Shown one piece after another: positions 4,667 to 56,513 of a DNA stretch of 64,000 nt. The first letter of the stretch is position 1; each line of letters starts with the position of its first letter. The DNA lies in the NCBI GenBank assembly GCA_030603365.1, contig JAUVXV010000001.1, positions 512,001 to 576,000 on the forward strand, written 5' to 3'. The notes below the pieces were generated by a model. It saw nothing but the letters and a program-made list of their open reading frames with translations, had not been told where the DNA came from and ran no database searches. The position numbers and the translations under genes were made by a program. This DNA comes from Candidatus Heimdallarchaeota archaeon. GTDB lineage: Archaea; Asgardarchaeota; Heimdallarchaeia; Heimdallarchaeales; Heimdallarchaeaceae.

Positions 4667-5977
4667 ATGGCGCTTGCAATGGTGTTTGACTTATCAAAGA
4701 AGAACTTCTACAGTCTTACATCACTTATTGCTACTCTTGACTTAGATGATGATTTGAAGGAAATAGATGTATTGACAAATGAAAATATTGATGCCAATGT
4801 GATAAAATCTCTTCTTGTTAAATACACACAACTAGTTGTTGGATTTTCATTTCGAACTGCGCAGTTACCTGAGATTTATGAAAGAATGTCTGTAATCTTC
4901 TCAAACTTAAAACCTTTAGAATTAGAAAAAGTGATTTTTATAGCGGGAGGAAGTCATCCCTCAGGAAGTCCTTTAACAACTCTAAAAACAGGTTTTGATT
5001 TTGTTTTTGTTGGAGAAGCTGAATTTTCCTTGCCTTTCTTCTTAAAACAAATAATCACAAATCAAGACGTTCATAAAACTCCAGGAATAGCATATCTTGA
5101 CGATATTGATACACATAAAACAACAACAAATCCACCTCCAATAAATCTTGATGATTATCCACTTATATCTAAATCCCGAGGTCTTTATCCACCTCTCGAA
5201 ATCACTCGAGGCTGTACTTTTGGCTGTACATTCTGCCAGGTACCAACTTTGTTTGGCCATCGTATAAGACACAGATCAATTGAAATTATAACAGATACTG
5301 TAGAGTGGATGGCTAGAAGAAAATTAAATGATATTCGTTTTATTACTCCAAATTCATTCGGTTATATGTCTTCAAAACCAAGAGATGTAAATCAAGATGC
5401 TATTGTAACATTATTATCTTCAATCCGTAAAACTGAAGGTATTAGAAACCTGTATTTTGGGACTTTTCCAGGAGAAGTTCGTCCTGAAACTGTTTCAAAG
5501 GAACTTATGAAGGAGATTAAACCTTACCTATCAAATACTAGAATCTCTTTAGGATTACAGTCAGGAAGCAATGATGTACTCAAGAATATTCACAGAGGAC
5601 ATTCAGTTGAAGAAGGAATAGATGCAATTAATATCTTGCTAGGTACCGGATTTACTCCTGTTGTTGATATTATAATAGGTCTTCCTAACGCTTCAGAAGA
5701 AGATGAACTAAAGACTATCCAAGTTATTGAAGAATTAACAAAACGAGATATTTTCATTAGAGCTCATATTTTTATGCCCCTACCAGGTACAAAATTGGAA
5801 GATACTCAATTCAAACCAGTCTATCCTAAGATAAGAAAGATGTTAGGAAAATTAAGCTCTAAAGGAAAAATAGAAGGAAATTGGACTAATCAAGAAAAGT
5901 ATGCAAGTAACGCGTGGAAAACAAGTCAGAAATTACTTGAATTTCCTCCAATTATGAAACCAAATAGTGGCTTATAA
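4667..5977 (+). CDS. B12-binding-domain/radical SAM protein (MJ1487/TIGR04013-like)
   Basis: IAGGSHPS and FVGEAE (cobalamin-binding-type N-domain); EITRGCTFGCTFCQVP (CxxxCxxC); YFGTFPGEVRPE; GLQSGS; HIFMPLPGT. Confidence 0.85.
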   Translation: MALAMVFDLSKKNFYSLTSLIATLDLDDDLKEIDVLTNENIDANVIKSLLVKYTQLVVGFSFRTAQLPEIYERMSVIFSNLKPLELEKVIFIAGGSHPSGSPLTTLKTGFDFVFVGEAEFSLPFFLKQIITNQDVHKTPGIAYLDDIDTHKTTTNPPPINLDDYPLISKSRGLYPPLEITRGCTFGCTFCQVPTLFGHRIRHRSIEIITDTVEWMARRKLNDIRFITPNSFGYMSSKPRDVNQDAIVTLLSSIRKTEGIRNLYFGTFPGEVRPETVSKELMKEIKPYLSNTRISLGLQSGSNDVLKNIHRGHSVEEGIDAINILLGTGFTPVVDIIIGLPNASEEDELKTIQVIEELTKRDIFIRAHIFMPLPGTKLEDTQFKPVYPKIRKMLGKLSSKGKIEGNWTNQEKYASNAWKTSQKLLEFPPIMKPNSGL

Positions 5978-6644
5978 CTTGATCTTCTTTTAAATGCCTA
6001 GCTCTTGCTTCTGCTTTTGCAGTTCTTCTAAAAACACTTATAGCTTTATCCATTGTCTTCCTATAACCTTCTTGAAACGCAAAAAAGAATTCTTTATCAG
6101 ATTGTGTATGAGTACTAGTAAAACATTTTTTCATAAGTAAGATATCCACGGCTTTATCTTCAATTGTTTGAGAAAATTTTCCTAAACCAAAATCTATGAA
6201 AATCAACTCATTATCTCGAATTAGTATATTACTTGTTGTTAGATCTCCATGTATAATGTCATTTGTATGCAAGATGCCAACTTTATCACCGATTTGTCTA
6301 ACTAGTTTTAATTTTTCATCAAGCGATTTAGTACTTTTCAACCAGTCCTTTACTAGAATTCCATCTATGTTTTCCATTATTATACTAGTATCATCCAAAT
6401 CAATTTCAAAGACATTAGGTGTTTTAACACCTATTTTTTTTGCAGCTATTAATAATTTTGATTCGGCAATAGTTCTACTTATTCTTAATTCTTCATCAAT
6501 CTCAGAAATTCTATATTTCTTAGGAATTCTGGTTTTTTTGATAACATTAAACCCAAACCAACATTCCTTAAAAAGAAAAGCTTCAGCTCCCCATGAATCA
6601 TATTGATGAAATGAGTTCTTTTGATCTTCCTTGTTATCTTTCAC
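5952..6644 (-). CDS. bud32: KEOPS complex kinase Bud32
   Basis: GAEA, KTRIPKKYR, RTIAESKLL, IIHGDLTTSNIL, FIDFGLG, EDKAVD. Confidence 0.95.
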   Translation of the reverse strand: MKDNKEDQKNSFHQYDSWGAEAFLFKECWFGFNVIKKTRIPKKYRISEIDEELRISRTIAESKLLIAAKKIGVKTPNVFEIDLDDTSIIMENIDGILVKDWLKSTKSLDEKLKLVRQIGDKVGILHTNDIIHGDLTTSNILIRDNELIFIDFGLGKFSQTIEDKAVDILLMKKCFTSTHTQSDKEFFFAFQEGYRKTMDKAISVFRRTAKAEARARHLKEDQVISHYLVS

Positions 6645-7680
6645 TTCTTATCCCTTCTAAATTTCTCAATGCGTTTATTATTTCGTCACCTTTAGGTTTA
6701 TCGAGAATTATTTCTTTAAGTTTTAATGTCTCTTTTTCTGAAGTTACAGTCCCGATAATGGAACAAGGTATTTGATACTCTATTAGAAATTCACGAATCT
6801 GAGTAGCTTTATGGTTGTCTGTAGCTAAGATGATTAAACCTGAAGAAATAAGTCTATATGGATCAAACTGCAGCCATTTAGATAATTTCTCTAATACTGG
6901 GTGTATTGTAGGCTCTTCGTTAAGTAATATTCCCACCTTTCTGTGAGCTAAAATCTCACTCAAAGCTCCATAAACACCACCTTCAGTAGCATCATGGATT
7001 AATACAGGTCTGAATTCTTTGTTGATGATATTCGCAATTTCTGTTAAACTGAGTCTTTCACCTATTCGAATCCCTTCTTCTAATTCTTCTTCATCAAGAA
7101 TTCTTTTAATTGATTCTTTAGCTTCAGATATTATTATCCCCATACCCTCTGCACCTATCTCCCCAACAAGAAGTATTTTGTCCCCAACAGTTAATTTGTT
7201 TGGAACATAGTAATTCTTTGTAACAAAACCTATCATGTGTCCAGAAATAACAATGCTTTGAACTGATTCAGAAATTTCTGTGTGACCACCCAAGATGCTG
7301 ATTCCTAAGTCTAAACATTGTTGATGTATTTGCTTTTGTATTAACTCTATCTTACTAAAAGATGTATCCGGAGGTGCGATAATGGATGCTAAGAAACCAT
7401 AAGGTAATGCTCCTGTGCATGAAATATCATTCGCATTAACTATAACCACATACCTACCAGGTTCAGATGTGGGAAAAGTAACGGGATCTGATTTAATGAC
7501 AAGGAAAATTTCAGAAGAATCTTCATAATACTCTTGAACTTTCTGTTTAGCTAATGAGATATTTAAAGCAGCAGCATCTGTCCCTACCCTACCAGAACTA
7601 ATGATTCCTACGTTTTCATAACCTTTCATTTTTAAGATCTCTTCAAGAAGAGAAATTTCTAGTTTACCTTTGTCCATCAT
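6634..7680 (-). CDS. AIR synthase-related (PurM/HypE/ThiL-fold) protein
   Basis: GKL, GTDAA, KSDPVT, VNANDI, ILGGHTE, HDATEGGVYGAL, DPYRLISSG. Confidence 0.85.
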   Translation of the reverse strand: MMDKGKLEISLLEEILKMKGYENVGIISSGRVGTDAAALNISLAKQKVQEYYEDSSEIFLVIKSDPVTFPTSEPGRYVVIVNANDISCTGALPYGFLASIIAPPDTSFSKIELIQKQIHQQCLDLGISILGGHTEISESVQSIVISGHMIGFVTKNYYVPNKLTVGDKILLVGEIGAEGMGIIISEAKESIKRILDEEELEEGIRIGERLSLTEIANIINKEFRPVLIHDATEGGVYGALSEILAHRKVGILLNEEPTIHPVLEKLSKWLQFDPYRLISSGLIILATDNHKATQIREFLIEYQIPCSIIGTVTSEKETLKLKEIILDKPKGDEIINALRNLEGIRSER

Positions 7681-7744
7681 TATTCCAATAAATTCAGATT
7701 TCTAAAAGTTTTTTACAAATGATAAAAACTATTTTTTTAAATTT

Positions 7745-8713
7745 CTAGAAACCCATTGTGTTTAGAATGTGCTTGATTATCTTAAATTTATAACCTACAT
7801 TAATAACATCATTCACATTTGTTGTCATTCCAACAAGTATCTTACCATCAGTGCTTTCTTCCACTATAATTTGGACTACTTCAGCATTCAATGCCTTAAT
7901 TTCATCTTCAGAATTTATCATTTCATAGATAACTCGTGGAAATTGTGTAATGGTTTCCAGTACATAAATGATCTTCCTTTCTTCTAGATTTCCAGCATAT
8001 AACTCTCCAATAGCACCATCTTTCTTAGCATAGATATAAGCTGCTGCAGATGGAGATTTACATCCTCTTATGGAAGAAAACAACAAAGAAGTTATAGCTC
8101 TTTTGTTTGCTTCATCGAGAATTTCCTGTGTCATTTCACTTGCATGAATTCGTGGTACAGATTCGAAAGGTCGGATTTTCTCGAATTCCTCTGCTTTTGA
8201 TTCAGCTGTTAATTCACTACGTTCTTCTTCATGGGGAATATCTAATGTGAGGGGTTCAACTTCCATTCTTTCAATTCCTAGACGGGAATAGATTCTATCA
8301 ATTTGATTTCTGACACGATCAGGTGATTGATCATATGAATAACCGCAGGTTTTTATGAGTAAATTTTCATTTCCGTGAGTTGTTAGATTTCTAATTATGT
8401 TTTGACTCAAAGTTGTTACATAGTTAAGTATAACAGGTCGAATTTCAGCAGCTATATTTTCTACTCTTGATACAAAAAGAAGTGTTAGATCAATGAAGGT
8501 AATATATGTAGCTCTGAATTTACCTCTGAAAATAGTAATCTCATTATATCTTCTTACCCATTGATAGAATTCTATCGGATGAATGAAATAACTGTGAATT
8601 TCAGTTTTTTCTACTTCACTTTTTGCATTTTCCAGTTCAAAAATGTTATTTCCCTTTAAATCATAGATTATAACAGCTACTAAAGGAGTGATGTTTGTCT
8701 TTGGAAAAGGCAT
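7745..8713 (-). CDS. Putative longin-like N-domain + roadblock-like C-domain protein (paralogue A)
   Basis: N-terminus AVIIYDLKGNNIF has the beta-beta-alpha-beta pattern of longin/sigma-adaptin folds. The C-terminal ~125 aa aligns with 8892..9473 and 10194..11270. Fold assignments are inferred. Confidence 0.55.
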   Translation of the reverse strand: MPFPKTNITPLVAVIIYDLKGNNIFELENAKSEVEKTEIHSYFIHPIEFYQWVRRYNEITIFRGKFRATYITFIDLTLLFVSRVENIAAEIRPVILNYVTTLSQNIIRNLTTHGNENLLIKTCGYSYDQSPDRVRNQIDRIYSRLGIERMEVEPLTLDIPHEEERSELTAESKAEEFEKIRPFESVPRIHASEMTQEILDEANKRAITSLLFSSIRGCKSPSAAAYIYAKKDGAIGELYAGNLEERKIIYVLETITQFPRVIYEMINSEDEIKALNAEVVQIIVEESTDGKILVGMTTNVNDVINVGYKFKIIKHILNTMGF

Positions 8714-8891
8714 AAGACCTCAACTAGAATGTAATATGTGATTATTCGCTAATAAATATATCTCAACTGTCCTATCATAGTACGAAAATTTCTAGTTTCA
8801 TAAGAATCAAGAACAAATTACTATTTTTCCCCTTTAATAGTAAGGAAATATTTTTAGAGTTTTACGATATATTAAATTCTGAGGAAGATTA

Positions 8892-9473
8892 ATGAATACT
8901 AAAAAGACTTCAGATGATTCCCCATCTTCAAAAATATCTTCTCGTAAAAGAAAAGCCTCTAAGAAGGATATTTTTGTTGAGATGGAAGAAGTTGCATACG
9001 AGACTTTGAAAATTCCTAAAAAGAAATTAAAATCTGGACAATACCTCCGAGATTTTCTTACTCAGACATCATCAGTTAGTGAAGTTAAAGAAGCGATACG
9101 AGTTACAATTGATGCATTACTTGATAGCATAGCAAGTGATTTACAATCCTTGTCGGCAGCATCATTAGTACCACACCCAGAAAGTGAAGATATGAGGGTG
9201 ATCGTAAGAGGACCCCTTAGTAAAGATGTGGTAAAGAAAATACTTGTAATTTTTCAAAAATACCCACCAGTTATTAATGATTTACTAGGGTCTGATGAAG
9301 AAATCAAAGTTTTAGATACAGGTATTGGTTTTGTTGTTTTAGAAAATTGTCAAAAGGACAATTATCTGGTCGGAATCACTCAGCAACAAAAAGATGTTGA
9401 TGAACTATCAAGAAAATTAAGACATGTTCAGAATGTGGTCATAAAAAACACACTACTTCTAGAGGACATCTAG
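8892..9473 (+). CDS. Roadblock-like domain protein with basic/Ser-rich disordered N-terminus (paralogue B)
   Basis: Shared motifs FQKYPPVI, DEEIKVLDTG, VVLEN, LVGIT; N-terminal SSKISSRKRKASKK. Confidence 0.55.
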   Translation: MNTKKTSDDSPSSKISSRKRKASKKDIFVEMEEVAYETLKIPKKKLKSGQYLRDFLTQTSSVSEVKEAIRVTIDALLDSIASDLQSLSAASLVPHPESEDMRVIVRGPLSKDVVKKILVIFQKYPPVINDLLGSDEEIKVLDTGIGFVVLENCQKDNYLVGITQQQKDVDELSRKLRHVQNVVIKNTLLLEDI

Positions 9474-9490
9474 TTGAAGAAATAGGCAAA

Positions 9491-10147
9491 TCATAGATTG
9501 GTTCCACAATGTGGGCATTTTTGTATTTCTGCATTTATTTCCTTAAAACAATTCCAGCAAGCTATTTTGTCCTTTATTTCTTCTTTATAAACTTCTATTA
9601 AATCAATTATTTCTTGCGTAAAATCAGTAACTTCATCATATAATTTTTCATTTCTCCCCAGAGATATTCTTGTTGAAAGAAGGTATAGGAGTAAAACTGA
9701 GCCACCTATTGAAACTAGCACAACCCCCCCAATACGAAGGGCATCTTGGGCTTCTTGTGGAATACTTTCCTTAACTGCAAGCAGTATTATCAGTGGAACA
9801 ATAGAAACAGCTATAATTAGTAAAACTACCCATAAACTATATCTTAATCCAAAAATCTGTTTATTTGACCAATTATATATCCCTCCAAAATAACTTTTTC
9901 TTGGCCTGTAAACGTCAATTTCAAGAAGATTTTCACGTTCAGTGTCAGTGATTTCAACGTTAACCCTTCTTCTTCTAATTTTTGTAAAAAGCTTCAATTC
10001 CTTATCATTTATTTCCTCGATTGTTATTTCTCTTTTTTGTAGTTTTTTTTCTAAATATTTGAAAAGAGATAGTGTTTTCTTTACACTACTGCGAATTTCT
10101 CTTAAGAAAAATCTTCTCTTAATTTGGCTTTTGTCCCAAATTTTCAT
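9491..10147 (-). CDS. Two-TM membrane protein with C-terminal Zn ribbon
   Basis: Two hydrophobic helices (LWVVLLIIAVSIVPLIILLAV; GGVVLVSIGGSVLLLYLLS); CWNC-x10-CPHC at the C-terminus. ATG 10147. Confidence 0.7.
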   Translation of the reverse strand: MKIWDKSQIKRRFFLREIRSSVKKTLSLFKYLEKKLQKREITIEEINDKELKLFTKIRRRRVNVEITDTERENLLEIDVYRPRKSYFGGIYNWSNKQIFGLRYSLWVVLLIIAVSIVPLIILLAVKESIPQEAQDALRIGGVVLVSIGGSVLLLYLLSTRISLGRNEKLYDEVTDFTQEIIDLIEVYKEEIKDKIACWNCFKEINAEIQKCPHCGTNL

Positions 10148-10193
10148 CGACCCCACATAACAGATACAATGTGAATTATAAAGGAATATTCGT

Positions 10194-11270
10194 TTAACTT
10201 AAGAAAGATGGTTTAAGAAACTCACCAATCATTGTTTTTACAAGTTTCATTCTTTTAGCAATTTGAGGAATTTCCTCTCTATTTTTTGTGATACTTACTA
10301 ACATTCCACCTTCAGTTTCTTCTAAAATGACTACACCGTCTCCTGCATCAAGAGTTTTTTCTTCTCCTTGAGCTTCAAGTGTTTGTTTAACAACTTCAGG
10401 ATATTTAGATAATATGCCTAAAACAAATTCTGCATGCTTTTCAGACATACCATAAGTTATTGTTTCAAGTAACCCTTTATCTCCAGTAAAAACAAAACAG
10501 ACTCCTGTTTTTGAGGACAGTCCTTTAACCACTGATGATATGACTCGCTCAATTGCACTCCTTTTTGTTTCCTCTAGAAGCTGTTGAGTTAATTCAACCT
10601 TCTTGTCATTTGCTATGAAAGTAGCATGAGAAATTTTTTTTCTTCCTAAATGTTCTAATAAATCTTCTACTTGACCTGAATCTGTAGTGCTTGATTGTTG
10701 AGTAGGTGTGTGTGATTGTGCTGTTGAAGGTGAGGGTGTTGTAGGTGAATAAGATTCTGTTTGTTGTACTGCTGGTTTTTCTTCTTCAACTTTAGTAGGA
10801 GCTATTGGTTCTGATTCGATAACTTGAGGTTTCTTTGCAGGAAAATAGTCATATTTTATTTGACTTGCTGCTCTTTCAGAAATTAGATTTCCCAATCGTT
10901 TTATTAAAGCAGTTTGTGATCTTGGTTCCATTTTTTCAATTGTGCCATAATCTTTAAGCTGTTCGTTTAAGTTATTTTTAATTATCTGAATTATGCTCAT
11001 TGCCATATTTTCATCAGTATCTGGTAAAAACATGCATGCTAAAACAATATTATAATATAAATGATAATCAACTCTAAAAACCTCATTTATCAAAGAAAGT
11101 GTCTGTGATTTTTTTAATTCCTCTCTAGTTTTAGTACTTGTGTCTATAACCTGAAAAACGGTTGAAAAAGCTGTTTTTGTGTTTATAACTTTGTCAAAAA
11201 CCATATCTTCCTCTAGCGTAAAAAGGCTAAATCCAACAAACTTATTCCATGCTAAATCGAAGTCGCTCAT
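10194..11270 (-). CDS. Putative longin-like N-domain + S/T/P-rich linker + roadblock-like C-domain protein (paralogue C)
   Basis: Linker SYSPTTPSPSTAQSHTPTQQSSTT; C-domain LSKYPEVV, GEEKTLDAG, VILEE, MLVSIT matches paralogues A and B. Confidence 0.55.
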   Translation of the reverse strand: MSDFDLAWNKFVGFSLFTLEEDMVFDKVINTKTAFSTVFQVIDTSTKTREELKKSQTLSLINEVFRVDYHLYYNIVLACMFLPDTDENMAMSIIQIIKNNLNEQLKDYGTIEKMEPRSQTALIKRLGNLISERAASQIKYDYFPAKKPQVIESEPIAPTKVEEEKPAVQQTESYSPTTPSPSTAQSHTPTQQSSTTDSGQVEDLLEHLGRKKISHATFIANDKKVELTQQLLEETKRSAIERVISSVVKGLSSKTGVCFVFTGDKGLLETITYGMSEKHAEFVLGILSKYPEVVKQTLEAQGEEKTLDAGDGVVILEETEGGMLVSITKNREEIPQIAKRMKLVKTMIGEFLKPSFLS

Positions 11271-11395
11271 CTTAAGTTCCTCACAGCTTTGTGTGAGATT
11301 AATTATTAATCAATATTCAGTACTTGACCATCAAACTCTATAAATTGTCTAGTATATGAATTTATTGTGGTCAATTTTAATTTAATTCTTGAATT

Positions 11396-12556
11396 TTATT
11401 TCTTCTTCTTTTTTTCTTGACGTAAGCGTCTTTTCTCCCATTTTTTCCATTTTTTGACATTCTTTGAAGATTCATTCCCGAATACAACTGCAGAATAAGA
11501 TCTCCCTTCAGTTTCCCCTAACTCACGAACCTTAAAACCTTCTTGTTCTACTCTTTTCTTTGTTTCTGAAAGCATTTGTTCTATTATGCTTTGACGACGT
11601 TGAGTTGCATCTGCGTCTAATTCTTCTACTTTTTCTTCCGTAACCACTTCTGGTTGAGGGATAATTTCTTCTGCTACTATTTCTTGTTCAGGAGTTATTT
11701 CTTGTTCAGGAACTGCTTCTGGTTCAGAAATAATCTCATCTATTGCGGATTCGTGAATTATTTGATCAAGATCTACTTTTTCAACAATTGGTTCTCCTGC
11801 TATTTCTGATGTTACCTCTACAATATCCTGTTCAGGTTCTTCTGTTGTCGAAATTATAATTTCTTCTTTGGTAATAGGAACACTAGTAGTTTCCTCTTTA
11901 AATATCAGGTTGTGAATATCTATTGGAATATTTTCAGGCTGGATTAATATCTGTTCATTGATGACTGGTTCTTTAACAATGGGAGAGGATAAATCAACTG
12001 ATTCCAGACTTTTAATATCTTTTTCTGGTAGCTCTTTTATCGTTATTTCTTCAAAATCTGTTGATGTTTCAGGAGTTTCTAAAGCTTCATCAAAATGAGT
12101 TTCTACGGTACTTCTTTTACCTTCAGAGGGAAGAGGTATCTGTTCTTTTTCAATAATTTCTTGAATTTCTGTTTTATCACTAGCATCAATTTCCCCTATA
12201 TCTTCACCTGAAACAGCTTTTGCCAAACCAATTGTAACTTCTTGAAGCTCTTTATCCAGCTGAATTTGCTCATCTGTTGGTTGGATTTCTTTATCAACTT
12301 CAGGTTCTTCTAGAATCTCTTCTTTGATTTCTTCTTCAGGTTCTTCTAGAACCTCTTCTTTGATTTCTTCTTCAGGTGCTGTATCCTTTAATTGCATTTC
12401 AGGTTCGATGCTGTTTTCTAATGTGCTTTCATCAGTAATAACTACCTTTTCAGCATGAACTTGTTCTTTAGCTAGGTCATAGAGAAATTGAGCAAATCTA
12501 ACGATATTCTTATTATCCCAATCTAGCAACTCTTTTGAATCTTCTTCATTATTCAT
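11396..12556 (-). CDS. Highly acidic, largely disordered protein with short helical termini and polybasic C-tail
   Basis: E/I/P-rich low complexity over ~290 aa; internal repeats PEEEIKEE(V/I)LE x2 and PEQEI x2; ends KKWKKWEKRRLRQEKKKKK. Confidence 0.75.
   Translation of the reverse strand: MNNEEDSKELLDWDNKNIVRFAQFLYDLAKEQVHAEKVVITDESTLENSIEPEMQLKDTAPEEEIKEEVLEEPEEEIKEEILEEPEVDKEIQPTDEQIQLDKELQEVTIGLAKAVSGEDIGEIDASDKTEIQEIIEKEQIPLPSEGKRSTVETHFDEALETPETSTDFEEITIKELPEKDIKSLESVDLSSPIVKEPVINEQILIQPENIPIDIHNLIFKEETTSVPITKEEIIISTTEEPEQDIVEVTSEIAGEPIVEKVDLDQIIHESAIDEIISEPEAVPEQEITPEQEIVAEEIIPQPEVVTEEKVEELDADATQRRQSIIEQMLSETKKRVEQEGFKVRELGETEGRSYSAVVFGNESSKNVKKWKKWEKRRLRQEKKKKK
12300..12377. repeat. 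36-bp in-frame tandem repeat (2.2 copies) inside the acidic protein gene
   Basis: TCAGGTTCTTCTAGAA(T/C)CTCTTCTTTGATTTCTTCT at 12300-12335 and 12336-12371, plus TCAGGT; one mismatch. Confidence 0.9.
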
Positions 12557-12768
12557 ACAGCAACCACTTTGAGGGTTGAGCTAAAATCTCAATTCTTACT
12601 ACTTTTCATGTTTTATTAACTTTTCTTAAGTTTCCATTATGTTTGATTTTTATTAGTTTCAGAAACTAAAATTAAACCTAATAAAGATGGAAACAATTAT
12701 CTAAAAAGATAAGAGTTCTGCCTACTGCTAAACTAAAATTTAAGAACTCATTTTGTAATTGTTCTATC

Positions 12769-13815
12769 ATGAGTGATTCACTCAAACCGCTATTAATCCA
12801 ACTAGTAGGCTCCTTTTCATATTATCTTATTGATGAAGCTCGTAGAGAGATAGGGAAAGATGTCTTGGAAGTTCAAATTCAAGATATTGAGTATTATAAA
12901 ACTGGAGGACGGTTTGGTGATGTTTATGTTATAGATGTATTATACTCATCCAAATTCGGGAAACACATAACAAAATTAGCTATTAAATTCATGGAAAGTC
13001 CTACAGAAGTTATTACTGAAATAAAAAATTCCTCATTTCTAGAAAAGAAATTTTCTACTCGTTCTGTTGTAAAAATTCCAAGATATGTTTATGTCAATTT
13101 GAAATCACCAACCTTTATAGCTTATGAAGGAGTAACTGGAATTAATTATGAAGATGCGCTTGATGTCAGAGATAAAAGTTTCTGGGCAGGTTATGTATTA
13201 TCAATAATTCATGAAGGTAAACCTCGTTCTGTGATCACTGATATTTATGAAGAACTCTATAGACGTCTCGTTCTTTCAATATTTGGAGGAGAAAACGTAG
13301 AGCAAGAAATTATGGAAAAATCAAAGGTTCTCATAGAAATGATGTCTGTGTCACAAGGGGGAAGTGATGCTTTTGGCGATTTCCATCAAAGTAATCTCAT
13401 GGTAAGAACTTCTCCTCAAAGCGAAGTATTAGGCATTGCTCTTATAGATCCAACTTTTTGGATGCAAGGTTCTTTTGATCGTTTTGAAGATGTAGGTACT
13501 TTTTTTGGAAGACAAGCTTTCTTAGAATTTAGAGTGAATAAACAGCTTGATACCACAATTGATGACATTCAGAAATTTATTCAAGGTTATAATGTTCATC
13601 TCAGAGAAGTTAATTCTATTCCACTTGAAGACCTATATCCCAAAGGTTATCCACTAGATTTCTTCTTAGCAATATGGGCGTTGATGGATATTCTTGATAA
13701 AACTATGAACCAGAATATCCCCTTAAATCATGTAGATATACTTCTTCTTAAAGAACTGGCTTTTCTATTACTAACAGAACATCCAATTAGTAAAGAAATA
13801 AATAATTTTATATGA
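12769..13815 (+). CDS. Protein-kinase-like (APH/choline-kinase-type) phosphotransferase
   Basis: GGRFGDVY Gly-loop; LAIKF lysine; TEI alphaC glutamate; GDFHQSNLMV catalytic loop; LIDP metal-binding Asp. Confidence 0.7.
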   Translation: MSDSLKPLLIQLVGSFSYYLIDEARREIGKDVLEVQIQDIEYYKTGGRFGDVYVIDVLYSSKFGKHITKLAIKFMESPTEVITEIKNSSFLEKKFSTRSVVKIPRYVYVNLKSPTFIAYEGVTGINYEDALDVRDKSFWAGYVLSIIHEGKPRSVITDIYEELYRRLVLSIFGGENVEQEIMEKSKVLIEMMSVSQGGSDAFGDFHQSNLMVRTSPQSEVLGIALIDPTFWMQGSFDRFEDVGTFFGRQAFLEFRVNKQLDTTIDDIQKFIQGYNVHLREVNSIPLEDLYPKGYPLDFFLAIWALMDILDKTMNQNIPLNHVDILLLKELAFLLLTEHPISKEINNFI

Positions 13816-13863
13816 GCCCGATGCAAGAAATATTTTAAAGAAGGAAATACAAGGTTATTTGAG

Positions 13864-14706
13864 ATGATTAACTCTAATCAAGAGATTTTAGTCTCAGCTT
13901 ACGCATTAGCTAAGATACTAGCATTGGATTCTCTGGATCATTCAAAAGAATCAGCAGGAGTATTATTAGGATATGTAGATGAGAATGGAAAAACGTTAGT
14001 TATTACAGATTTTGATACAGGAAAACAGCAACAAACCTCAACTTATGTTGTACTTGATGATGAAGCGTTAGTACAAATTGTTACAGATTTGCAAAAGCGT
14101 GATAAACGAGAAACAATAGTTGGATGGGTTCATACTCACCCTTCATATGGTTGTTTCCTCTCTGGTACAGACAAGAGCACTCAAAGAGTATATCAGAATC
14201 TTTTTTCACAAGCAGTTGCTTTAGTAATTGATCCTTCAAAATATTACAAATCATCTGATCAAAAAGACTTGGAAATTAAATTCTTTAGGTTGATTAATGA
14301 TTTAGATTACAAAGTTATTCCATTTGGAATATTCTATGATGATGTGACTACTCATCTGGCTAATCTCGTCGAATTTGATATTAAGTGGGAATTACCTACA
14401 TTATCGGCAGAAGAAGTAAAAATACTCCATCAGAAAATACATTCAATAAGCACTTCTTCAATGCTTGAGGGAGATAAACAATTATTGCATGGATTTGTTG
14501 ATGTTTTAAGTACGTCTTCAGAAGATTTTGTTTCAACAGATGAAGGTAAAGAAACATTAGAATCTATAGATATGAAACTAAATCATATCATAAGAGATGT
14601 AAACTATATCTATGGAGAAGAAACATCTAATCTTTATGCCATATTAAATGTCATTGCTGTTATTGTAATTGCAATTTCATGGTTACTAGCAGCTTTCATT
14701 GCTTAA
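13864..14706 (+). CDS. JAB1/MPN+ (JAMM) metallo-isopeptidase, Rpn11/CSN5-like, with C-terminal transmembrane helix
   Basis: KESAGVLLG; VGWVHTHPSYGCFLSGTD (intact H-x-H-x7-S-x2-D); AVALVIDP; terminal LYAILNVIAVIVIAISWLLAAFIA. Confidence 0.9.
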   Translation: MINSNQEILVSAYALAKILALDSLDHSKESAGVLLGYVDENGKTLVITDFDTGKQQQTSTYVVLDDEALVQIVTDLQKRDKRETIVGWVHTHPSYGCFLSGTDKSTQRVYQNLFSQAVALVIDPSKYYKSSDQKDLEIKFFRLINDLDYKVIPFGIFYDDVTTHLANLVEFDIKWELPTLSAEEVKILHQKIHSISTSSMLEGDKQLLHGFVDVLSTSSEDFVSTDEGKETLESIDMKLNHIIRDVNYIYGEETSNLYAILNVIAVIVIAISWLLAAFIA

Positions 14707-14771
14707 TCTTCCTACATCGGAAAAAAACATGTGTAGAAGAGTTTTTTTAATGAAAGTTAAACAATTTCTTA

Positions 14772-15554
14772 ATGCCTCAAATACAAATTATACCAGTACC
14801 TTCAGTTAAAATAATTGAAGTAAAGGATGATTTACTTTCTATCTTATTTGATTCTCTAAGTGAAAACAAAATACATTTAGAAAATGATGATATTTTAGTT
14901 ATTGCCAGTAAAGTAGTGGCAGTTGCAGAAGATAATATAGTCCATTATTCAACCGTAACTCCTTCAATTGAAGCCATAGAATTAGCCAAAGAAGCGCACA
15001 TGGATCCAGAATTTGCACAAGTTATTCTTGATGAATCTAATGGTAAATATACAGGAGCTGTTCCGGGTGCTATTACTACTTTGAATGAATATGGTCTTCT
15101 TGCAAATGCAGGAGCTGATCAATCCAATGCTAGAGATAAGCAGATTATTCTTTTACCCAAGAATAGTAAGAAATCTGCAGAACAAATACACAAACAGATA
15201 CTAGAAAAAATCAACTCCTATGTTGGCATTATAATTGCAGATTCTCGAACAACTCCATTAAGACTAGGCACAGTTGGTTGTGCATTAGCAACTTTTGGAT
15301 TTGAATCTCTCCTTGATGAAAGAGGCAATAATGATTTATTTGGAAGAGAAATGCATATTACAGTACGTGCAATAGCTGATCAATTGGCAACAGCTGCAGA
15401 GATTGTAATGGGAGAAACCGATGAAAGAACTCCTTTTGCTATTATCAGAGGATACCCAATCAAAAGAATAATAGAAAATGAAGAGATTAATCTTAATACA
15501 CAAATTTCTGCAGAAGAATGTATGTTCATTGGTCCAATGTTAAAGAAGAAGTGA
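14772..15554 (+). CDS. cofE: CofE-family gamma-glutamyl ligase (F420-0:glutamate ligase-like; possibly folate glutamyl ligase)
   Basis: DDILVIASKVV, LANAGADQSN, IIIADS, PLRLG, DLFGR, ADQLATAAEIVMGE. Confidence 0.85.
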   Translation: MPQIQIIPVPSVKIIEVKDDLLSILFDSLSENKIHLENDDILVIASKVVAVAEDNIVHYSTVTPSIEAIELAKEAHMDPEFAQVILDESNGKYTGAVPGAITTLNEYGLLANAGADQSNARDKQIILLPKNSKKSAEQIHKQILEKINSYVGIIIADSRTTPLRLGTVGCALATFGFESLLDERGNNDLFGREMHITVRAIADQLATAAEIVMGETDERTPFAIIRGYPIKRIIENEEINLNTQISAEECMFIGPMLKKK

Positions 15555-56140: not shown

Positions 56141-56513
56141 GAATTTGATATACATTCTTACCATATTTTGTTAGTATAGTCATTCCTAGAGCTAAACTAT
56201 AAATGTCCTTTGAAGCAGCCAAAACAATGAATTGGTCTAGATTTAGTAGAATAACAAAACCCTCTGTCCCCTTTATAATAACTTGATCCAGATTTCCACA
56301 TTTAATTTGATTTACAGTTTGTTGTCCTGCTGAATTGAGAGCAGAAGCTAAGGCTGACATTATAACTTGATCTGTGCTTTTTTCAGCAAAAAAAGCAAGC
56401 TCTTGACCTTCTGAACTCACAACAGCAATAGCACTTAAACTACATTCCTTTGAAATATCTCTAAGAATTCCTAGTAGTTTCGATTTCTTTTCAGGTGGCA
56501 AATCATTTAACAT
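56130..56513 (-). CDS. Roadblock/LC7 domain protein
   Basis: AIAVVSSEGQEL...MSALASAL...GNLDQVIIKGTEGFVIL...LAAS...LALG. ATG 56513. Confidence 0.88.
   Translation of the reverse strand: MLNDLPPEKKSKLLGILRDISKECSLSAIAVVSSEGQELAFFAEKSTDQVIMSALASALNSAGQQTVNQIKCGNLDQVIIKGTEGFVILLNLDQFIVLAASKDIYSLALGMTILTKYGKNVYQILTA

Follow-up and report, generated by a model that had tools for sequence, protein, structure and literature searches.

Three hypothetical proteins, here termed A, B and C, are encoded as neighbours in the genome of Candidatus Heimdallarchaeota archaeon, a member of the family Heimdallarchaeaceae. All three carry a C-terminal domain of the roadblock fold, and A and C have in addition a longin-fold domain at the N-terminus. 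The genes lie in a stretch of 64,000 nt that was analysed as a whole and is termed the window (contig JAUVXV010000001.1, positions 512,001 to 576,000 of the forward strand); positions are counted from its first nucleotide unless a contig is named. The proteins are paralogues of narrow phylogenetic range, and their genes are retained together with that of an acidic disordered protein over five genera. The interpretation put forward here, which is given about an even chance of being right, is that A, B and C are subunits of a longin/roadblock complex specific to the Heimdallarchaeaceae, which would serve as a platform for small GTPases.

An earlier note on this DNA, made by reading the sequence, had proposed that the three proteins share a C-terminal domain of about 125 amino acids (aa). 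Pairwise BLASTP comparisons bear this out, with a common domain of about 130 aa and E values from 5e-15 to 3e-9. A and C align over 126 aa with 25% identity (E 5e-15); the E values are 3e-9 for A and B and 1e-11 for B and C, and identity is about 25% over 119-126 residues across the three pairs. Profiles built from the orthologues of A and of C, aligned to one another by hhalign, give a probability of 98.2% and an E value of 3.4e-14.

Described sequence families do not include these proteins. Pfam and NCBIfam scans show no family match for A, B or C, the Roadblock/LC7 family PF03259 matches none of the three at E values up to 1, and a phmmer search of the PDB with A found no chain. The 66 orthologues of C all belong to Heimdallarchaeaceae or Heimdallarchaeota, and all are without annotation. 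A HMMER search of 1.84 billion cluster representatives with a profile of the C-terminal domain (E <=0.001) returned a family of 27 clusters. Nearly all of these are two-domain proteins of 300-377 aa, the exceptions being B-type proteins and fragments, and among the matches there is no canonical roadblock protein and no longer fusion (>377 aa).

The folds of A and C were modelled with AlphaFold2 (AF2), using alignments that pooled the paralogue groups. The mean predicted local distance difference test (pLDDT) scores are 83.6 for A and 80.9 for C, and values exceed 90 across most of both domains. DSSP assignment of the models agrees with the alpha-beta-beta-alpha-beta-beta-beta-alpha pattern that had been read from the sequence of the C-terminal domains (A 196-320, C 224-352). 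The N-terminal domains, described in the earlier note as longin-like, show a beta-beta-alpha-beta-beta-beta-alpha-alpha order (A 13-145, C 11-142), with no helix at the N-terminus before the first strand. The linker that joins the two domains had been called flexible, and pLDDT falls below 50 along it (A 155-188, C 158-221); in C it is rich in S, T and P.

Structural comparison of the C-terminal domains with 48,161 PDB representatives, by means of VIA-align (VIA), points to proteins of the roadblock type. The C-terminal domain of A matches domain LD3 of Mon1 (Z 11.0), MglC (10.5, 112 of 120 residues), the C-terminal domain (CTD) of a Lokiarchaeal Rag-like protein (9.6), the Roadblock/LC7 structure 3leq (9.5, 101 of 102 residues), MglB (9.3) and MP1–p14 (9.3). 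That of C matches MglB (Z 9.5), 3leq (9.4) and the Lokiarchaeal Rag-like CTD (9.0). The roadblock fold proposed by the earlier note is thus upheld for A and C by VIA and AF2, and B is assigned to it through its homology to both.

The N-terminal domain of C resembles the longin domain of delta-COP (VIA Z 11.3), the N-terminal domain of AP-2 mu (10.9), AP-3 mu (10.6), the VAMP7 longin domain (10.1), synbindin (9.5) and Sec22 (9.1); sedlin is also among the matches, and a search of a protein atlas finds AP sigma with a template modelling (TM) score of 0.63 by target. For A the longin match is weaker than for C and is level with that to the roadblock protein MP1: the VIA scores are 8.8 for MP1, 8.7 for AP-3 sigma and 8.0 for the VAMP7 longin domain. 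Foldseek matches to this domain include the VAMP7 longin domain and zeta-COP. The top Foldseek matches of A as a whole are chains of Mon1, Ccz1, HPS and Fuzzy/Inturned, with E values of 2e-6 to 7e-5 over 330-350 aligned columns. The same classes, along with LAMTOR, MglB and Asgard roadblock proteins, are found with C, all at E >=1.4e-3 and nothing at E <=0.001, and the assignment of C to these folds is based on VIA and the protein atlas. The best profile matches in the PDB, which are non-significant, are AP-2 sigma for the N-terminal domain and a Streptomyces Roadblock/LC7 protein for the C-terminal domain (E 0.045). Each of the two N-terminal domains is unique in the genome by profile search.

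B is without a longin domain. Its N-terminal tail (aa 1-55, 8892-9056) contains an invariant I-x-x-x-KR (I15, K19 and R20; mostly RKRK, within an SRKRK motif), which forms a basic patch. Next to it comes a conserved stretch in which acidic residues are also kept (FVEMEE-AYE). The whole tail is conserved in all five genera and may be a membrane- or partner-binding peptide.

The phylogenetic range was surveyed in 300 genomes sampled from the phylum in addition to the window's own, many of them incomplete. Matches to the C-terminal domain are confined to one order. They are present in 28 of the 28 genomes from the window's family (f1), mostly in four copies, namely A, B, C and D, the last being a fourth and more distant paralogue that is encoded on another contig of the same genome. 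In families f2 and f3, 7 of 12 genomes carry one copy each, of the D type, and no match was found in the remaining approximately 260 sampled genomes, which are in part incomplete. A maximum-likelihood tree of the C-terminal domain separates the D-type sequences from A, B and C with 100/100 support; A and B are sisters (92/98), and the slowly evolving C is near the base. Taken together, tree and range argue for a family-level expansion: as judged by sequence comparison, A, B and C are one duplication lineage found in the Heimdallarchaeaceae and distinct from D, the older two-domain paralogue of the whole order, and B has lost the longin domain. B is also the best conserved of the three, its orthologues being 59-84% identical across genera; those of A are 35-87% identical across the five genera. 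Within the genus, conservation of A, B and C equals that of housekeeping neighbours.

Gene order shows which neighbours belong with the three paralogues. In the window's genus (g1) the entire region is collinear, housekeeping genes included, and synteny within the genus is for this reason uninformative. Four further genera of the family, g9 to g12, were therefore the ones that counted. In g10 the order is JAMM–kinase–acid–C–B–A, the gene for the Zn-ribbon protein being absent. The same order is found in g11, where the right-hand flanks differ and the acidic gene was located by a motif search, and g12 has B–acid–C–kinase. The core in g9 reads acid–C–Zn–B–A; about 40 kb separates it from the kinase–JAMM pair, which has kept folP and cofE-like genes as its neighbours. 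The core acid–C–(Zn)–B–A is thus kept over five genera despite changing flanks. From the cross-genus order and the family-only range of the acidic protein it follows that acid–C–B–A make up the conserved module, into which the Zn-ribbon gene is variably inserted.

The earlier note had gone further and grouped seven genes into a single system, a membrane platform regulated by phosphorylation and deubiquitination through the kinase-like enzyme and the JAMM protease. All seven open reading frames are present with the positions and strands it gave them (Table 1), and as a conserved neighbourhood the acidic gene, C, B and A stand; the Zn-ribbon gene, found at the locus in g1 and g9, and the kinase-like and JAMM genes, distant in g9, do not. 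The kinase-like and JAMM genes do adjoin the acidic gene in g1, g10 and g11, in g12 the kinase gene follows directly after C as the result of a rearrangement, and the linker of C is rich in S, T and P. Yet 70 of 83 genomes of the class have members of the kinase family, two or three paralogues apiece, a range far wider than that of A, B and C. In addition, genomes of family f3 that are without A, B and C (L038, L039) have an orthologue of the kinase and a homologue of the tail-anchored JAMM protein one or two genes apart. APH-type enzymes, for their part, mostly phosphorylate small molecules. The kinase–JAMM pair is an older, separate gene pair, its assignment to the system is not sustained, and a seven-gene platform is judged very unlikely.

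The two proteins of that pair differ in how firmly they can be identified. The JAMM protein is by its sequence an intact Rpn11-type MPN+ enzyme and is tail-anchored, as had been noted. It matches PF01398 (E 8e-15, 55.1 bits against a cut-off of 22.5), has the intact motif HTHPSYGCFLSGTD (HxHx7Sx2D at residue 90) and the upstream Glu of ESAG at residue 29, and ends in a hydrophobic segment (253-280); among solved structures its best relative is 6fjv (E 1.7e-25), whose deposited name is 26S proteasome regulatory subunit N11-like protein. The kinase-like protein has no match in Pfam, NCBIfam or PDB sequence searches, so that the call made in the earlier note is a weaker one. It is backed by look-alikes from a protein language model in APH clusters of the protein atlas (score 0.99), and by a DxHxxN / [ILV]D motif pair, GDFHQSN and LIDP. 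These make the APH type a lead rather than a membership. Over the order the two genes keep to within one or two genes of one another, as a conserved pair of their own would, and the pair is possibly a membrane-resident deubiquitinase module.

The acidic protein, as described before, is rich in D and E (27.5%) with a pI of 4.3. The alignment of orthologues shows short conserved islands and a conserved C-terminal block, and the protein ends in a W/K-rich polybasic tail, KKWKKWEKRRLRQEKKKKK. The C-terminal motif occurs in family f1 (25 of 30 genomes), and none of the 16 genomes from elsewhere in the order has it. In all genera with an inspected locus the gene is immediately upstream of C; in the window the two are in the same direction. 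The Zn-ribbon protein also agrees with its first description, with two hydrophobic windows and a CWNC...CPHC pair; sub-threshold matches to Zn-ribbon Pfam families fall at 197-221. It is 26-52% identical within the genus, and its gene is present between C and B in g1 and g9 only. The protein is probably a genus-variable accessory.

In the proposed complex A and C would pair domain with domain, longin with longin and roadblock with roadblock, as in Mon1–Ccz1, Ragulator–Rag CTDs, MglB/MglC and TRAPP, and B would contribute a further roadblock unit. The short conserved motifs and the polybasic W/K tail of the acidic protein would fit it to serve, much as LAMTOR1 does, as an extended scaffold or as a tether to the membrane. 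The platform would thus be Mon1–Ccz1-like in its architecture, and Ragulator-like in that a disordered protein with a basic end goes with it. Such an assembly might bind and regulate, or localise, one or more of the approximately 40 small GTPases of the genome.

Hetero-oligomerisation, which the earlier note had proposed for the locus, was addressed by predicting the complex of A and C, both at full length and with their own alignments, in three runs with three controls. The interaction scores (ipSAE) are 0.55, 0.61 and 0.59 (median 0.59), and all controls are at 0.00. The runs have at least 25% contact agreement, and partner pLDDT is at least 66. In calibration, 58 of 80 solved complexes reached the ipSAE mark, as did 2 of 110 mismatched pairs. 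The result is graded as weak support, because scores at or below 0.60 came from 7 of those 80 solved complexes and from both mismatches that passed. It should be pointed out that the pass may stem from likeness to solved longin/roadblock heterodimers rather than from binding. The pairing of A with C is therefore weakly supported against a best control of 0.00.

This raises the question of whether A, B and C are partners at all, or are independent tandem paralogues, each a homodimer with a separate role, whose adjacency reflects their history. Solved Asgard roadblock structures have been deposited as homodimers (PDB titles; PMC10933270). The genes are in mixed orientation, as the earlier note pointed out (A minus, B plus, C minus), and the heterodimer prediction is weak, which also suits independent proteins. 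On the other hand, A, B, C and the acidic gene stay together over five genera while the flanks rearrange, the controls of the complex prediction are at 0.00, and each paralogue is under strong constraint even though identity between them is about 25%. Strong constraint despite divergence is usual for obligate subunits of hetero-oligomers such as LAMTOR2/3 and Mon1/Ccz1. Independent roles for the three proteins are, on balance, unlikely.

The GTPase part of the interpretation is drawn from fold analogy alone, since the window, and with it the neighbourhood of the cluster, contains no small GTPase gene, of the Rag/Ras family or other. Ras-superfamily matches in the genome number 42, and canonical Robl_LC7 genes 7. 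In the other genera examined, the unlabelled open reading frames that flank the cluster encode PvlArgDC-like, PKD-domain, ABC ATPase, PCI–RING and AAA-like proteins, and no GTPase. The PCI–RING protein, in g11 (L033:12350-14410, minus), has 687 aa with PCI, helix-turn-helix-like and RING-finger Pfam matches and is three genes from A. In a cultured Lokiarchaeon, GTPase genes are generally outside operons that have roadblock or longin genes (Tran et al., PMC10933270). As Asgard GTPase genes are generally not beside longin or roadblock genes, the missing synteny is weak evidence.

Several observations weigh against a hetero-oligomeric GTPase platform. The complex score for A and C, the one pair run, is weak and comes with no reported interface, and the adjacency of tandem paralogues can be a matter of history alone. 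A small GTPase gene is missing from the 64-kb window and, in the other genera examined, from the flanks of the cluster. The N-terminal domains of A, C and D show no significant sequence homology to one another (hhalign E 0.035-0.18). The scaffold or tether role of the acidic protein is suggested by composition, conserved motifs and position only. Finally, the C-terminal domain of A also matches GAF and IclR effector domains, at Z 8-9.7 and so close to the roadblock scores, though less of the target is covered.

The last of these, together with the missing GTPase neighbour, is what would be expected if the proteins had a role apart from GTPases, as sensors of small molecules or peptides like GAF and IclR proteins, or as adaptors for the cytoskeleton or for SNARE-like fusion. 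GTPase-independent roles of longin and roadblock domains are indeed known, in SNAREs and dynein light chains (PMC10933270). A roadblock assignment is nevertheless preferred, because with GAF and IclR domains only a portion of a larger target is aligned; the roadblock and longin matches have near-full target coverage and the right topology. The top multi-domain matches, moreover, are Rab guanine nucleotide exchange factor (GEF) subunits, and the absence of GTPase synteny says little given the Asgard gene layout (PMC10933270). A non-GTPase role is considered rather improbable.

The tri-longin Rab GEFs (Mon1–Ccz1, Fuzzy–Inturned/CPLANE and HPS1–HPS4/BLOC-3) likewise have longin followed by roadblock-like domains; they provide the top Foldseek matches of A, and LD3 of Mon1 is the best VIA match of its C-terminal domain. 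These GEFs are heterodimers of paralogues, whereas the pairing of A and C is a prediction. They have three domains in 400-700 aa; A and C have two in about 320-360 aa, with no third domain modelled, and the overall root mean square deviation is 18-20 Å because only individual domains superpose. A, B and C match neither PF19031 nor PF19036, the first-domain families of tri-longin proteins, and have no significant sequence match to the tri-longin Rab GEFs. Three D-type relatives show matches to the Pfam families Intu_longin_1 and Fuz_longin_1 (E 0.0026-0.046), below the cut-offs. The tri-longin Rab GEFs are eukaryotic and the A/B/C family is within one archaeal order, so ancestry to the eukaryotic proteins is not established. 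The more specific proposal that A–C is a minimal two-domain archaeal counterpart of these GEFs, with B as third subunit and the acidic protein as tether, and that it switches a specific Rab/Arf/Rag-like GTPase, appears quite unlikely. The literature searched has no paper that joins 'tri-longin' and archaea.

Ragulator (LAMTOR1-5) with the Rag CTDs offers a second comparison. It too has several paralogous roadblock domains and a long, mostly disordered scaffold with a membrane-binding end, which here is putative, and LAMTOR2/3 and Rag/Gtr CTDs are among the structural matches of A and C. LAMTOR proteins, unlike A and C, are single-domain. LAMTOR1 is lipid-anchored, whereas the acidic protein has a polybasic tail and no detectable similarity to LAMTOR1; and Ragulator has its Rag GTPases, whereas in the window no Rag-like gene adjoins the cluster. 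MglB/MglC and the canonical Asgard Roadblock/LC7 proteins (PF03259) have the same fold, with Z 9-10.5 and near-complete coverage. A and C differ from them by the added longin domain and linker, and A, B and C by having no PF03259 match.

That longin and roadblock domains are expanded in Asgard archaea is already known. In Asgard proteins the two are also joined to one another and to GTPase domains (Tran et al. 2024, PMC10933270). The fusions reported there are mostly to GTPase domains, which A and C lack. A Lokiarchaeota 'Roadblock-Longin protein' (PDB 8yqk) is named in the order roadblock–longin, as opposed to the longin–linker–roadblock order of A and C. Set against these fusions, the A/B/C proteins form a sequence family of their own, which among the sampled Asgard genomes occurs in one order only. 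The Asgard longin/roadblock literature that was searched has no description of the A/B/C family, of a GTPase-free longin–linker–roadblock architecture or of the gene cluster.

Eukaryotic GTPase regulators such as TRAPP, Mon1–Ccz1, Ragulator and GATOR1/FLCN are built of longin and roadblock domains, and eukaryogenesis poses the question of how these multi-subunit, multi-domain forms came from single domains in archaea. The locus is a small example, accessible to experiment, from a lineage near the eukaryotes, with duplication, domain loss (in B) and a co-inherited disordered partner among four paralogues. Should the three proteins assemble into a hetero-oligomer with a GTPase as its target, this would show that complexes of this type evolved independently within Asgard archaea. 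The narrow range, one order for the family and one family for the triplet, argues against direct ancestry of the eukaryotic complexes.

The features of the locus are collected in Table 1. The genes for the acidic protein, C and the Zn-ribbon protein run in the same direction, separated by 125 and 37 nt. A 178-nt spacer lies between the divergent genes A and B, and the kinase-like and JAMM genes are divergent from the acidic gene.

Table 1. Genes and domains of the longin/roadblock locus, with positions in the window.
Feature	Position	Strand	Description	Basis
Gene A	7745-8713	minus	322 aa: longin, disordered linker, roadblock	Open reading frame confirmed; AF2
A longin-fold N-domain	8279-8686	minus	about aa 10-145	DSSP, VIA, Foldseek
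A roadblock-fold C-domain	7748-8137	minus	about aa 193-322	DSSP, VIA
Gene B	8892-9473	plus	193 aa: basic N-terminal tail and roadblock-type domain (about aa 55-190)	BLASTP homology
Zn-ribbon protein with two transmembrane segments (2-TM), variable accessory	9491-10156	minus	C-terminal CxxC...CxxC	
Gene C	10194-11270	minus	358 aa: longin, S/T/P-rich disordered linker, roadblock	Open reading frame confirmed; AF2
C longin N-domain	10842-11249	minus	about aa 8-143	VIA, protein atlas
C roadblock C-domain	10212-10607	minus	about aa 222-353	VIA, Foldseek
Acidic disordered protein	11396-12556	minus	386 aa	Composition, conserved motifs
APH/protein-kinase-like-fold enzyme, probably outside the module	12769-13815	plus	348 aa	Atlas look-alikes, motifs
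Tail-anchored Rpn11-like JAMM/MPN+ metalloprotease, paired with the kinase-like gene	13864-14706	plus	280 aa	PF01398

A canonical Robl_LC7 (PF03259) gene of about 140 codons is also present in the window, 40 kb from the cluster (56217-56435, minus; C1:568217-568435).

Paralogue D has an open frame of 338 codons at C14:318960-319976 (L004:853-1869, plus). There is no ATG, GTG or TTG at the start position of the orthologues, and the frame begins ATA GAG GAG ATT directly after a TAA; this could be a rare start at ATA or ATT, or else the start codon has undergone a point change. D adjoins a radical-SAM gene, and in relatives a gene for a protein of about 650 aa is also present; we take the two to resemble the archaeosine ArcS/RaSEA pair. 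A match in genome G019 (family f2) was at first read as an orthologue of C, and was recognised as D-type by its neighbouring radical-SAM gene and by the tree. Near it (L025:4353-5729) are genes for a 132-aa protein that by eye is a canonical roadblock or MglB-like protein, and for a 302-aa protein with an N-terminus that by eye is like a gelsolin-type repeat.

Contigs from two metatranscriptome libraries of two studies match parts of A (8250-8516), C (10766-11144) and the acidic gene (12030-12208) with at least 99% identity. As these are contigs, they carry no information on depth, strand or transcript ends, uncovered stretches have no meaning, and carry-over of DNA is possible. Near-identical DNA (contigs of at least 99% identity) is found for 5900-14800 in cold-seep sediment metagenomes of more than one study, and contigs of two cold-seep metagenome runs cover much of this stretch, which suggests that cold-seep sediment is the habitat of the lineage.

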